The notes: generated from the letters alone by a model not told the origin. A DNA stretch of 64,000 nt from a virus (IMGVR_UViG_3300017987_000047), one strand, 5' to 3'. Positions 14,902-61,464 are shown, counted from the stretch's first letter. Numbers and translations are program-made.

Positions 14902-15255
14902 TTATATATACGGAAAAGTTTTAAAAGAAGTTGTCGTTAAGTCGTCGTAAATGCCATTTTTAAGAGCTTTCTTGGCTAAATCCCTTACAATTTTATGCGC
15001 GGAGGTTAAAAAAGCCCGGATTGGCACTTCTTCATGGTAGTTATTGTTATCCTTAAAATTCCAAGGGAAATCCCAGTCCCATGTGTAATAGGGGGTAGCT
15101 GAATTAATGTACAGTAACCCTTTTTCTAAAGCCGCTTCCCCCTTACGTTGATATGATATCCCCATAATAGGAAACGCAGAAATGGAGGAAGGAACATTCA
15201 TTGGGGAATACTTTATTTTTGGACGGAAAAAAGTTATGGGTGGTTTTTCAGCCAT
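14902..15255 (-). CDS. Hypothetical protein with LLTH-type tag
   Basis: AFLTSAHKIVRDLAKK. Confidence 0.65.
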   Translation of the reverse strand: MAEKPPITFFRPKIKYSPMNVPSSISAFPIMGISYQRKGEAALEKGLLYINSATPYYTWDWDFPWNFKDNNNYHEEVPIRAFLTSAHKIVRDLAKKALKNGIYDDLTTTSFKTFPYI

Positions 15256-15779
15256 TGTTTTGCATATTTTCTAAGTTCGGGGGCATCGCTGGTTAAAAGC
15301 TTTTCCATTTTGTTGTGCGCCTGGATTAAATAAAACCACCAACAATCCTTTGCAAATTTAAATTCGGGAACCTGAAAAGCTAAACAGTTCGTTGCTTGGT
15401 TTAGCAAAAAAGGAATTTCTGAAATGGGGTCTGGCCAAGGAAAAGCGACATTATCAAAAATTAAACAGGTTGGAGGTTCCATCCCCCGATGGCGGGTTAG
15501 GTCCACAACCCCAGGGAATACATAAAGCGTAGAATTTGATCCCGGTAAAGTAAACCTAGGATTATTATGCCTACCCGATTTATTTATCTCCGGAACCAAT
15601 CCAGTCAAATTTATATCATCATAGCCTGAAAAACAATAGATATTTTCATTTTGTTTTTTAAGATATTTGAGTGCGTATAAGGCGCATGTCGTAGTTGCCC
15701 CTTTTCTCCTTTCCCAAACATAAGCTTGAATAGAGTTTTCTTTTGCTAAAATGTCTTTTTGTTCTTGTCTAAGTATCAT
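15234..15779 (-). CDS. Hypothetical protein, degenerate P-loop-like, C-terminal tag
   Basis: ERRKGATT; KLLTSDAPELRKYAK. Confidence 0.65.
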   Translation of the reverse strand: MILRQEQKDILAKENSIQAYVWERRKGATTTCALYALKYLKKQNENIYCFSGYDDINLTGLVPEINKSGRHNNPRFTLPGSNSTLYVFPGVVDLTRHRGMEPPTCLIFDNVAFPWPDPISEIPFLLNQATNCLAFQVPEFKFAKDCWWFYLIQAHNKMEKLLTSDAPELRKYAKQWLKNHP

Positions 15780-16747
15780 ATTTTATGAGTTTGAGCTGCT
15801 TTATTACAGTAATCAATACAAACATCTAGACACATCTTTTTACAAATTGGGTCTTTTTGGGAGTTATGCCTTTTCAACCACTCGTACCTCTCTTCTCTCA
15901 TGTTTGGGCCAACCTTACCAATTGGGTCTCCCCCTTCCCTCAGGTAGATAATACATGGGAAGTGGTAGTCTCCAGCGATTGCCATATCATCTAAAACTAA
16001 CCAACATTTATCACAATCAGTTTCTCTTAATCCCCGAACATGTCGGACAGCATTAATATTTTTAATCCGATACTTAAGAATTGGGAGCCGGTCAAGAACT
16101 TCTCCCGGCAATTCTGCTAACTTGGATAAAGCCTGGTCGTACTGAGCCGCTGGTATAACCCGCACATCTGAAACCCCCAATGAATCTGCGAATAAGACTG
16201 ATTCTTTACAGTCGTCAATGTTGCTTTCGGTGAAAACCATCCCAACAGTGACATAGGTAATTTTGCTAAGCTCCCGAATTGTACCAACGACCTTATCCCA
16301 AGCACCTGGAATGCCCCCAGCCATTTTATCGCCAATTGAGCAACACCCACCATCCAATGATATGGAAAAGTCATTTGCTCCTGCTTCTACCAACTGGCGG
16401 TAAAGTTCCATAGAAGCAGAGCCGTTTGTGGAAATTGCTATACGCTCAACCCCACCATCTTTACATTGCTTAACTAGCTCAGGTAATCCTTTATAAAGAG
16501 TTGGTTCCCCTCCTGAAAACCTAACATTCTTGAGCTTTTCCTTTGTCCAGTATGAGAGAATCTGGGAAGCTTTTTCAAAAGGAATTGTTCCTTTGATATC
16601 GTCTCTTAGCCCTCGGCAATAAGGACACCGAAAATTACACTTATCAGTAAGAATAAGTTCACACCTCCATAAAGGCGTTTTCGTTGAACAATTGAATGCT
16701 CTTTGGTCGCTTAAGGTATAGAAACCGATATCTTCTAACTTACTCAT
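15776..16747 (-). CDS. Radical SAM protein
   Basis: CNFRCPYC, SGGEP, C-terminal Cys cluster. Confidence 0.9.
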   Translation of the reverse strand: MSKLEDIGFYTLSDQRAFNCSTKTPLWRCELILTDKCNFRCPYCRGLRDDIKGTIPFEKASQILSYWTKEKLKNVRFSGGEPTLYKGLPELVKQCKDGGVERIAISTNGSASMELYRQLVEAGANDFSISLDGGCCSIGDKMAGGIPGAWDKVVGTIRELSKITYVTVGMVFTESNIDDCKESVLFADSLGVSDVRVIPAAQYDQALSKLAELPGEVLDRLPILKYRIKNINAVRHVRGLRETDCDKCWLVLDDMAIAGDYHFPCIIYLREGGDPIGKVGPNMREERYEWLKRHNSQKDPICKKMCLDVCIDYCNKAAQTHKI

Positions 16748-16748
16748 T

Positions 16749-17315
16749 TTACTTTCCTAGCGCCTTCTTGGCTATTTTCCGTATAGCCTTGTCATCCGAT
16801 GTTAAAAGTTCCCGTGCGGGCCCTAGCTCTTTTGCATTTCTCCTTTCCCAAACGTCCTCGTTTATACGGAGGGTTGTAAAGGCCTTAAAAAAGAACGGGC
16901 TAAGGACATATGCTGTATAGATTTTTGGGTTACCTGTTTTCATATAACAAATCCTAAATAACCCATTATAGAAAAAGCTAATTCCGAAGTCATTAAATGT
17001 GGGGGATGGGTAAGCATAAATTGTGCGATCTTTCCATATTTCCCGAGCCTGAGAAACGGTAACAACAAAATGAATGAAACTAACGCCTAGAATAGGAAAG
17101 GTAGCATTAGATAAAATTTCAAAAATAAGCCCTCCTTCGAAGTTTAACTTTACACAGAGTATACTTAAAATTAAACAAATGAAAAATTCCAACGTGAGTA
17201 TTAAACTTGATACAAGAGGATGAACTCGACTGTATCCTATCTTTCTCAGAAATCTTCGGGAATTAACCCAGGTACTTTTTAGATAGCCGAACAGCTTCAT
17301 GGCGTGAGGACCCAA
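16749..17315 (-). CDS. Membrane protein with C-terminal tag
   Basis: Two hydrophobic segments; ELLTSDDKAIRKIAKK. Confidence 0.65.
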   Translation of the reverse strand: MGPHAMKLFGYLKSTWVNSRRFLRKIGYSRVHPLVSSLILTLEFFICLILSILCVKLNFEGGLIFEILSNATFPILGVSFIHFVVTVSQAREIWKDRTIYAYPSPTFNDFGISFFYNGLFRICYMKTGNPKIYTAYVLSPFFFKAFTTLRINEDVWERRNAKELGPARELLTSDDKAIRKIAKKALGK

Positions 17316-17601
17316 TCAACTTGTAAAGGTCGTCGGGATGAAATCCCTTAACAAAATCTTTTCCTTTTGAAGAATGGAAAACCTCTGCTTTAACGTGGCA
17401 GTGTTCGCATAAGCTTATTCCATTTTGGGGGATATACCCCCCACTCGGCATTTCATTCCTGTCTACAATATGGTGTGCGTCAAGCTCTTCCTCTGCCTTT
17501 TCGGGAGTGGTTTTAAAACCACAACCGCGACAAGTATATTTGTCTCGTTGAAAAACAGCGGTTCGAAAAGCTCTTCGCAACTCTTTTTTCTTATTGCCCA
17601 T
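17263..17601 (-). CDS. HNH endonuclease
   Basis: RDKYTCRGCG, DAHHI, NGISLCEHCH. Confidence 0.85.
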   Translation of the reverse strand: MGNKKKELRRAFRTAVFQRDKYTCRGCGFKTTPEKAEEELDAHHIVDRNEMPSGGYIPQNGISLCEHCHVKAEVFHSSKGKDFVKGFHPDDLYKLIGSSRHEAVRLSKKYLG

Positions 17602-60301: not shown

Positions 60302-60321
60302 GTCGCCCCGTCGCCGAATCA

Positions 60322-60351
60322 GAAAGGGGAGGGAAACCTCCCCTTTCTTTT
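60322..60351 (+). terminator. Intrinsic terminator
   Basis: GAAAGGGGAGG-GAAA-CCTCCCCTTTC plus TTTT. Confidence 0.85.
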
Positions 60352-60370
60352 CCGCTGAAAAACATAAAAC

Positions 60371-61141
60371 ATGAATTCCGACTCTTATTTCGCCATTGGG
60401 CATAGTCACCATGTATGTGAAGACTATGCTTTTGCCGGGCCAACTGCATGTTCCAAAACCCCTATCGCAGTTGTCTCCGACGGGTGTTCAACCGCACCCA
60501 ATACGGATATCGGGTCCCGAATTCTCACACGGGCAATTTTGTTAAATTATCCTTTAAACCTATCAGAATCAATCCGGGGCGCCTACCAGGCGACTAAAAC
60601 CCTTGGTCTGACATTTGATTCTCTCTTCGCAACGATTTTAACGTTAGAGTTTACCCCCGAGAATCAAATTAAGGCGCAGGTTTCGGGGGATGGTGGGGTT
60701 ATTGCGAGAAAAAGAGAATCTCAAGAATTAGAAGTTTATTGGTTAAATTATTGTTCCAATGCCCCCGAGTACCTTGCTTACTTGCTTCACACCCCTTCAT
60801 ACAGTAGGTTCCTAGATTCTTTTGGGAATCAAAAAGCAGCTGAGATTACGACGCTGGGACCTGACGGAGAGGTTAAGAGCAGTTTTGCTGAATTCCCGGA
60901 GGATTTAGTTTATGAAAGGTACTTCGACCCAGCGGATTACGATCTCATTGCGGTAACATCTGATGGGGTTGATTCTTTTGCTGGCCTCGGGTATATTGAC
61001 GTTATTAAACGTATTATGTCTTTCAAAAATTATAAGGGCGAATTTGTTAAACGGAGAGTCAAACGATTCTTGAAAGAAATTGCAGCTGAAAAAATTAGGC
61101 ACGATGACGATGTTAGTCTTGCTGCGATTTATCTAAAGTAA
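60371..61141 (+). CDS. PP2C-like phosphatase
   Basis: SH..CEDY, VSDGCS, GDG, TSDG, DDVS. Confidence 0.85.
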   Translation: MNSDSYFAIGHSHHVCEDYAFAGPTACSKTPIAVVSDGCSTAPNTDIGSRILTRAILLNYPLNLSESIRGAYQATKTLGLTFDSLFATILTLEFTPENQIKAQVSGDGGVIARKRESQELEVYWLNYCSNAPEYLAYLLHTPSYSRFLDSFGNQKAAEITTLGPDGEVKSSFAEFPEDLVYERYFDPADYDLIAVTSDGVDSFAGLGYIDVIKRIMSFKNYKGEFVKRRVKRFLKEIAAEKIRHDDDVSLAAIYLK

Positions 61142-61464
61142 TGAATATACTTGATAAACTTTTCAAAGTTATTGAGATTTCCCCTGGTGTTTCTGATAGG
61201 CCTTATTTCGTTTGGTTACACCCAACCAAAAAGATTTTTATTGAAATAGACTGTATCGCAGGGGAAATGGATTATAACTCCAGTGAGAATATATATTCCG
61301 AGTGGTATGCTGGTATAAAAGATTTCAAAAATTTTGGGAAAGATGTCGATGTCGAGTGTAAGCAAACTTTTTATTATGAAGAGGTTTCGTTTAAGGTGCT
61401 CCTAACACACGCTTGTCCTGAAACTAGAGCTTGGGCGAAAGAAAAGCTATGGGAATCAAAATAA
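61141..61464 (+). CDS. Hypothetical protein with C-terminal tag
   Basis: VLLTHACPETRAWAK. Confidence 0.7.
   Translation: MNILDKLFKVIEISPGVSDRPYFVWLHPTKKIFIEIDCIAGEMDYNSSENIYSEWYAGIKDFKNFGKDVDVECKQTFYYEEVSFKVLLTHACPETRAWAKEKLWESK

Follow-up and report, generated by a model that had tools for sequence, protein, structure and literature searches.

The viral DNA analyzed here (IMGVR_UViG_3300017987_000047; a stretch of 64,000 nucleotides, referred to as the window) encodes 97 called genes, 21 of which carry a single copy of a short basic peptide, the so-called tag, that resembles one unit of a HEAT-type repeat protein. The window has a GC content of 40% and a coding density of ~92%, and gene orientation switches from minus to plus at ~29.7 kb, where the sign of the GC skew also flips. 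It forms part of the ENA contig ERZ27256770:k141_416325 of 335,479 bp (exact protein match), with copies on contigs of 384,251 and 315,855 bp, and its source is an uncultured huge phage. Pfam searches identified T4-type genes (gp30.3 and an rIIA-like HATPase protein), tRNA or RNA repair genes (PTH2, RNA ligase, RlaP and two PolyA_pol-type nucleotidyltransferases), metabolic genes (GlnA, PurA and sugar aminotransferases), and genes for a PP2C phosphatase, a kinase-like protein, a ClpS-like protein and a DUF2201 VWA/metallopeptidase protein. Among GenBank phages only a weak DNA match of 112 nt, to Pseudomonas phage PaBG, was found, and the host is not assignable from PurA, whose closest relatives are only 42–48% identical and scattered over Latescibacterota, Fibrobacterota, Gemmatimonadota and Spirochaetota.

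A preliminary description had listed 25 open reading frames (ORFs) of the window as carrying one copy each of a shared motif. A 22-column hidden Markov model, built from 14 seeds defined by a regular expression, was searched against all 1065 six-frame stop-to-stop segments of the window with a cut-off of 8 bits, and returned 21 matches at or above this value, seven of which were not seeds. All 21 lie in coding-strand ORFs that had been listed, one per ORF, while the best match outside the tags reached 5.6 bits. No match of at least 8 bits was found in 100 residue-shuffled versions of the 97-gene proteome (maximum 7.3 bits), nor in the reversed proteome, so that the frequency of the tag is well above that of either (21 versus 0). 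The observation is real and statistically secure. Of the remaining four listed instances, those in ORFs 36849 and 52243 are borderline, and those in 44259 (no score) and 55260 (a score of -2) are not supported. The carriers make up half of the ~28 genes between 14.9 and 29.7 kb. Housekeeping enzymes do lack the tag, as had been proposed: none was found on GlnA, PurA or the sugar enzymes, in the first 14.9 kb, or in a further ~31 kb of glycan-synthesis island (maximum 2.4 bits), and this island, walked for ~20 kb upstream of the window, is tag-free and serves as a control from within the same genome.

Table 1. Solid and borderline tags of the window, with the carrier ORF, the coordinates and strand of the tag, and its profile score.
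Feature	Position	Strand	Score (bits)
Near-C-terminal tag, ORF 14902-15255; 17 residues after tag	14956..15021	-	12.9
C-terminal tag, ORF 15234-15779	15243..15308	-	25.1
C-terminal tag, ORF 16749-17315, hydrophobic membrane-type protein	16752..16817	-	28.8
C-terminal tag, ORF 17979-18503	18009..18074	-	27.9
N-terminal tag, ORF 18613-18969; 83 nt from tag of 18903-19463, different frame	18892..18957	-	14.9
Near-C-terminal tag, ORF 18903-19463; true start probably after tRNA-Ser	18975..19040	-	29.4
C-terminal tag, ORF 19780-20448	19786..19851	-	26.9
C-terminal tag, ORF 20438-20824	20441..20503	-	19.6
C-terminal tag, ORF 22170-22559	22185..22250	-	31.2
C-terminal tag, ORF 23584-23946, paralog of carrier 23950-24333	23596..23661	-	33.7
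C-terminal tag, ORF 23950-24333, paralog of carrier 23584-23946	23959..24024	-	15.0
Internal tag, ORF 26845-27753; retained in 67%-identical L006 ortholog (P0014)	27361..27426	-	26.1
N-terminal tag, ORF 28538-29014; syntenic N-tagged L006 gene 29% identical	28925..28990	-	24.8
N-terminal tag (residues 1-22), leucine-rich repeat-type protein 28995-29645	29580..29645	-	35.0
Near-C-terminal tag, all-alpha protein 32388-33443 (P0005)	33330..33395	+	32.7
Borderline degenerate tag, ORF 36849-37430; Arg13 replaced by Gln	37257..37322	+	3.6 / 7.7
Near-C-terminal tag, ORF 43012-43947 (P0019); retained in 25%-identical L004:7334-8455	43786..43851	+	32.8
Borderline degenerate tag, ORF 52243-52809	52705..52770	+	5.2 / 2.6
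Internal tag, ORF 53392-53898; start set after two tRNA genes	53611..53676	+	27.7
Internal tag in C-terminal helical part, nucleotidyltransferase 56219-57139 (PolyA_pol head domain)	56891..56956	+	28.6
N-terminal tag (residues 1-22), ORF 57208-57804	57208..57273	+	32.9
C-terminal tag, ORF 58137-58604	58536..58601	+	31.3
C-terminal tag, ORF 61141-61464, between PP2C phosphatase gene and kinase-like gene	61390..61455	+	8.0

The longest possible ORFs at 26845-27753, 18903-19463 and 53197-53898 extend into tRNA genes, whose translated T-loops yield GSNPT-like peptides; their real starts are later Met codons, as had already been assumed for 53392. A run of seven A residues near 18970 separates the C-terminal tag of 18903-19463 from the N-terminal tag of 18613-18969 (18892-19040, minus strand), and a one-base slip at this run would produce a fused gene with two tandem units at a 28-residue period. 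This pair could be a sequencing error, a case of programmed slippage, or simply two overlapping genes. The claim of one copy per protein therefore holds for all 21 ORFs as they are read, with the qualification that this adjacent pair may be a tandem split by a frameshift.

Within the tag, Thr6, Arg13 and Lys17 are invariant in all 21 copies and Ala16 is present in 18, whereas position 9 is Asp in only eight. Four codons are used for Thr6, five (both CGN and AGR) for Arg13 and two for Lys17; nucleotide identity between tags is 45%, and identical residues are encoded by the same codon in only 35% of cases. Since the invariant residues use mixed codons and nucleotide identity is this low, selection acts on the peptide and not on a DNA or RNA signal, in agreement with the protein-level conservation initially proposed. 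A conserved nucleotide signal at gene junctions was rejected on the same grounds. Fourteen tags end within 31 residues of the C-terminus, four start within nine residues of the N-terminus and three are internal. In N-terminal copies the initiator Met lies only three residues ahead of LLT, while C-terminal copies end 2–3 residues past Leu20, and from these boundaries the minimal tag comprises ~17 residues, the length originally given. The net charge of the tag ranges from 0 to +8 (mean +2.95) and is never negative, the carrier bodies being near neutral. Its second helix, helix B, displays a hydrophobic stripe (positions 12, 15, 16, 19 and 20) beside a basic one (positions 13, 14, 17 and 18). 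AlphaFold2 models predict a helix-turn-helix: in the all-alpha protein P0005 the putative helices span residues 312-318 and 324-336, with predicted local distance difference test (pLDDT) values of 71–76, and no other segment of this generally poor model is predicted with confidence, while in the leucine-rich repeat (LRR) carrier a helix at residues 4-6 and another at 10-20 (pLDDT 58–67) are predicted to precede a beta-solenoid. P0005 may itself be a degenerate solenoid, although the models are of low confidence.

The preliminary description had likened the tag to one unit of a HEAT/PBS-lyase repeat. When the lone-tag profile was searched against 1.84 billion representative proteins, only 33 were retrieved at E<=0.001, and these fall into two groups, i.e., small proteins with one tag, from this phage and its relatives, and multi-unit proteins (P0015, P0017, P0023, P0030 and P0036). 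The multi-unit matches are assigned to HEAT_2, HEAT_PBS and HEAT by Pfam, with units such as LLALLTDKSPEVRRAATMALGE repeated at a 31-residue period, and P0015:700-1000 matches HEAT_2 at an E value of 1e-63. The tag profile thus pulls out true HEAT arrays, which substantiates the proposed likeness and at the same time supplies the tandem-array proteins for which a scan had been suggested. The best PDB match is the engineered repeat protein 4rzp, in which ELLTHDDSKV occurs six times at a 42-residue spacing. The tag shares with HEAT, HEAT_2 and PBS-lyase repeats (PF02985, PF13646 and PF03130) and with ARM-type repeats the signature LL-x-x-x-D-P-x-[IV]-R-x-x-A-x-x-L, as well as the predicted helix-turn-helix. 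Thr6 had been regarded as atypical for such repeats; since canonical arrays read LLTD and the engineered protein reads LLTHDD at this position, the Thr is instead part of the consensus of the class.

What is unusual about the tag is its invariant Lys17 (position 17 is Lys in only one of 18 array units) and its basic charge, arrays being neutral or acidic. Furthermore, the Gly that ends helix B ahead of the next repeat in arrays is mostly lost in lone tags, and in N-terminal copies helix A is reduced to LL. HEAT-type repeats form tandem solenoids, whereas no tandem array was seen among the 21 carriers, each with one tag per ORF, the possible exception being the pair at 18892-19040 if joined by a frameshift. 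In ten carriers no Pfam HEAT model matched the tag even at E<=1, a single RRP12_HEAT match lying outside it; in the relative P0033 a separate, internal canonical unit, distinct from the tag, comes near the Pfam cut-off (23.0 versus 23.5 bits). Because single tags remain below every Pfam HEAT threshold and are not tandem, the tag is best classed as a HEAT-type unit by likeness and not as a member of an array family.

The carriers had been described as mutually unrelated. Among those of the window are an LRR beta-solenoid (AlphaFold2, pLDDT 72.8), a PolyA_pol-type nucleotidyltransferase, a hydrophobic membrane-type protein and all-alpha orphans, so that proteins of several different folds clearly bear the tag. 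In an all-versus-all BLASTP comparison of window proteins with the tag masked, the only link between carriers is that of 23584 and 23950; the same comparison joins the tagged nucleotidyltransferase 56219 to its paralog 44259-45158, which has no scoring tag. When 45 non-identical carriers, pooled from the related contigs as well as the window, were masked in the same manner, they formed 41 BLAST clusters, and the carriers are therefore not recognizable full-length paralogs, with 23584/23950 as the exception within the window. PHROGs contained no family for any of ten carriers tested, and a homolog search with nucleotidyltransferase 56219-57139 returned only the query itself.

The tag also recurs in at least three other uncultured phage lineages. 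In a close relative (L006), whose neighbouring proteins are 52–86% identical, the syntenic N-tagged counterpart of 28538-29014 is conserved mostly in the tag. A more distant relative (L004; DUF2201 55%, AAA_5-like protein 56% and ClpS 35% identical) has four tags in 15 kb, and between 42820-43947 and its ortholog L004:7334-8455 the tag retains 9 of 16 residues. Five tags occur in 12.4 kb of L005, which encodes ClpP, while L008 and L009, on contigs of 154 and 284 kb and without detectable similarity to window proteins, lie beside a capsid-like gene and carry two to three tags. Some relatives (P0016, P0025 and P0029) possess two tags each. A word-based search with the tag alignment returned mostly the genome's own proteins. 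Searches of IMG/VR by the rIIA-like protein, by a degenerate DNA pattern for LTHKDPx[ILV]RxxAK or by an exact 33-mer of the window found no relative, and tblastn against GenBank phages produced no tag match at E<=10. Taken together, the tag is an old feature under selection in a clade of uncultured huge phages, and the protein bodies that bear it evolve very fast. A LAGLIDADG gene lies close to the tags in L009:8417-9940, and in the window free-standing HNH endonuclease genes (14367-14870 and 17263-17601, minus strand) are scattered among the tagged orphans.

Given that the tag is position-independent, surface-conserved, basic and present on many unrelated proteins, it is best explained as a common protein-protein docking handle, a reading which is held tentatively and in which we infer both the binding and its target. 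According to this proposal, a clade of uncultured huge phages would have spread a solitary basic HEAT-type unit over many fast-evolving, mostly orphan proteins. In this unit a short cap, LLT(H/S)x(D/N)P, leads into the amphipathic helix IRxxAKxxL. Leu4, Leu5, Ile12 and Ala16 would hold the mini-hairpin together, leaving Thr6, Arg13, Lys17 and the hydrophobic but variable positions 15 and 19 as an exposed, positively charged binding face. Many different carriers could in this way plug into one acidic site on a shared partner, candidates for which would be a phage or host hub such as the end of a HEAT array, a virion or scaffold component, or a protease or AAA+ adaptor. The occurrence of the tag at the N-terminus, at the C-terminus or internally argues for a module rather than a position-bound signal. 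A binding surface rather than solenoid packing is suggested by the invariance of Lys17 in tags as compared to array units, by the basic charge, and by Asp9 being far less conserved than Arg13.

Several points weigh against the docking handle. Within the window, neither a HEAT array nor an FHA domain nor any other obvious reader was detected by Pfam; binding to phosphate, nucleic acids or membranes would suit a basic amphipathic helix with invariant Thr, Arg and Lys equally well; a hub for possibly more than 100 different ligands would have to be very abundant, or the binding transient; and a very old common ancestry of the small C-tagged orphans, which BLAST cannot exclude, would make of these carriers one hyper-diverged family. 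No evidence links the tag to the destinations and readers suggested in the preliminary description, namely head packaging, the ClpS-like protein, the MoxR/vWA pair and the rIIA ATPase. The ClpS-like protein is the most acidic of the window, with an isoelectric point (pI) of 4.25, and is conserved in L004; it has no PDB relative by sequence, and a homolog search returned only the query. ClpS N-degrons present an exposed first Phe, Leu, Trp or Tyr, whereas most tags are C-terminal and the N-terminal ones begin with Met-His-Thr or Met-Asp-Ser. Neither the AAA_5-like protein (46119-47360) nor the rIIA-like ATPase bears a tag, and no tagged NTPase was found in the window. The AAA_5-like gene adjoins the DUF2201 VWA gene in L004, the two being 7 kb apart in the window. 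The largest array match, P0015, was considered as a phage hub and rejected, as it is a bacterial HEAT-CHAT protein in a chromosomal context.

Rather than a protein, the partner of the tag could be a polyanion, an alternative which we consider unlikely, though worth serious attention. The basic Thr/Arg/Lys helix would bind the phosphate backbone of DNA or RNA and so concentrate early proteins on the phage or host nucleoid, tRNA or the ribosome. The range of net charge, which never falls below zero, is consistent with this, as are the three invariant residues, which are typical phosphate ligands. CCA-type enzymes hold tRNA in their C-terminal helical part, and it is in this region that the nucleotidyltransferase 56219-57139 bears its tag; in addition, the HEAT array P0017, one of the matches to the tag profile, has a weak match to DNA_alkylation (AlkD-type, HEAT-like; E 0.0012). 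However, one short helix alone would provide little affinity, the invariantly small Ala16 and the conserved LLT..DP cap suit helix packing and not DNA binding, and a membrane protein and LRR proteins are also tagged.

A second alternative, for which the probability is low, dispenses with a common partner altogether: the small carriers would belong to a single paralog family that diverged explosively, with an exon-like transfer now and then, and the hairpin would be a structurally needed intramolecular cap or stabilizer. Consistent with such a history, the pair 23584/23950 is still recognizably paralogous, carriers evolve very fast (29% identity in the syntenic pair, against 52–86% for neighbours), and the tag of the LRR protein sits at the usual place of the capping helix of LRR domains. 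Yet the tag occurs at either end or internally and on different folds, masked carriers separate into nearly as many clusters (41) as there are proteins (45), and a purely structural cap would not hold surface Thr, Arg and Lys invariant while the Asp and Pro of the turn vary.

Targeting to the membrane, by an amphipathic helix of the MinD, FtsA or MreB kind that would place carriers on the anionic inner membrane, is very improbable. The adjacent hydrophobic and basic stripes of helix B conform to such a helix, and the tag is terminal in 18 of the 21 carriers, known targeting helices acting at either terminus. These known helices are nevertheless loosely conserved and rich in large hydrophobic residues, whereas in the tag Thr, Arg and Lys never vary and Ala16 hardly does; the LLT..DP cap is left unexplained, and one carrier is already an integral membrane protein. 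Equally improbable is a homotypic assembly in which tags bind each other, as death-domain-like pairs or as a mixed solenoid in trans, and gather carriers into a body or filament. In canonical HEAT arrays the equivalent of Arg13 is the ladder residue, to which Asp9 of an adjacent repeat is paired. HEAT units are made for stacking, the tags at 18892-19040 would form a tandem pair if joined by a frameshift at the A7 run, and double-tagged proteins exist among the relatives. Against this, position 9 has kept the ladder partner Asp in only a minority of tags while Arg13 is invariant, Lys17 stands in place of the small packing residue of arrays, and like charges of about +3 would repel. A complex predicted for four copies of a 40-residue tag region scored 0.00 in two runs made without controls, which weighs neither for nor against self-association; assembly in trans into a mixed solenoid, as initially suggested, received no support.

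The least probable alternative is a regulatory handle, i.e., a shared degron or modification site that would time the life of early proteins, for example through phosphorylation of Thr6 by the kinase-like protein and its reversal by PP2C, or through recognition by a phage Clp system: Thr6 is invariant, the carrier gene 61141-61464 overlaps both the PP2C and the kinase-like gene, and an acidic ClpS-like protein occurs in the window and in L004, with ClpP in L005, but the kinase match is below the Pfam cut-off (20.8 versus 31.7 bits), ClpS reads N-terminal residues and not helices, Pfam detected no FHA domain or other phospho-reader in the window, and kinases act poorly on a Thr held within a folded cap. 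At 60371-63113 (plus strand) the PP2C gene, the 107-residue tagged gene and the kinase-like gene overlap end to end, an arrangement reminiscent of modules for partner switching or phospho-regulation; another SpoIIE/PP2C gene, called in L091:11689-12798, is located at 758-1882.

Additional features of the window and its surroundings are as follows. The divergent gene arms meet at ~29650-29790, where the GC skew changes sign, which makes this region a possible replication origin or a possible site of divergent early promoters. Of the 13 tRNA genes, one, at 11985-12059 (minus strand) and adjoining a tRNA-Val, has the amber-reading anticodon CUA (amber suppressor type); TAG serves as stop in 21 of the 97 called genes and the ORFs are contiguous under code 11, giving no sign of TAG recoding in the region. 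Between 44000 and 48000 the GC content is raised to 47.5% (versus ~40%), and this segment contains the untagged nucleotidyltransferase, the ClpS-like gene and the AAA_5-like gene. The large glycan-synthesis island upstream on the same contig (L091:12946-15636 and L092:1-3856) encodes an intein-bearing UDP-glucose dehydrogenase, several sulfotransferases and glycosyltransferases, and a multi-domain glycosyltransferase of 1636 residues.

Several known systems offer partial parallels to the docking handle. The capsid targeting sequence of phage T4 internal proteins (IPI-III and Alt) is likewise a short peptide on unrelated phage proteins, and a tag of this kind would similarly send all of its carriers to one destination; the window is, moreover, T4-like in gene content. 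The T4 signal is, however, N-terminal, ~10 residues long and cut off by the prohead protease, whereas the tag is mostly C-terminal, 17–22 residues long, of HEAT type and present on about one fifth of the genes. The effector-associated adaptor domains of bacterial conflict systems and dockerin-cohesin-type tags also recruit unrelated proteins to a common core by means of a small module at either end; unlike the tag, these modules are folded domains of greater size, and either their partner has been identified or the hub bears a matching copy.

No description of a HEAT-class repeat unit used singly as a portable tag was found in the literature, and if the docking handle is the correct reading, the present case would be the first one found. 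The tag represents a new use of a known structural unit, with a bearing on the evolution of repeat proteins and of short docking motifs. A bolder version of this reading, which is possible but doubtful, is that the huge-phage clade runs its own proteome-wide addressing system, in which a solitary HEAT unit, specialized by its invariant Thr, Arg and Lys surface, would direct at least one fifth of the phage's proteins to a single dedicated reader. Such a reader could be a solenoid hub completed by the tag in trans, the gate of a compartment, or a loader of the capsid or scaffold that serves co-injection, and in such a system new orphan genes would become cargo by gaining a tag. Most genes of huge phages are orphans of no known function, and one handle on 20–30% of them would provide a common experimental entry point; should the handle be genuine, its hub could show where and when a large set of fast-evolving phage proteins acts.

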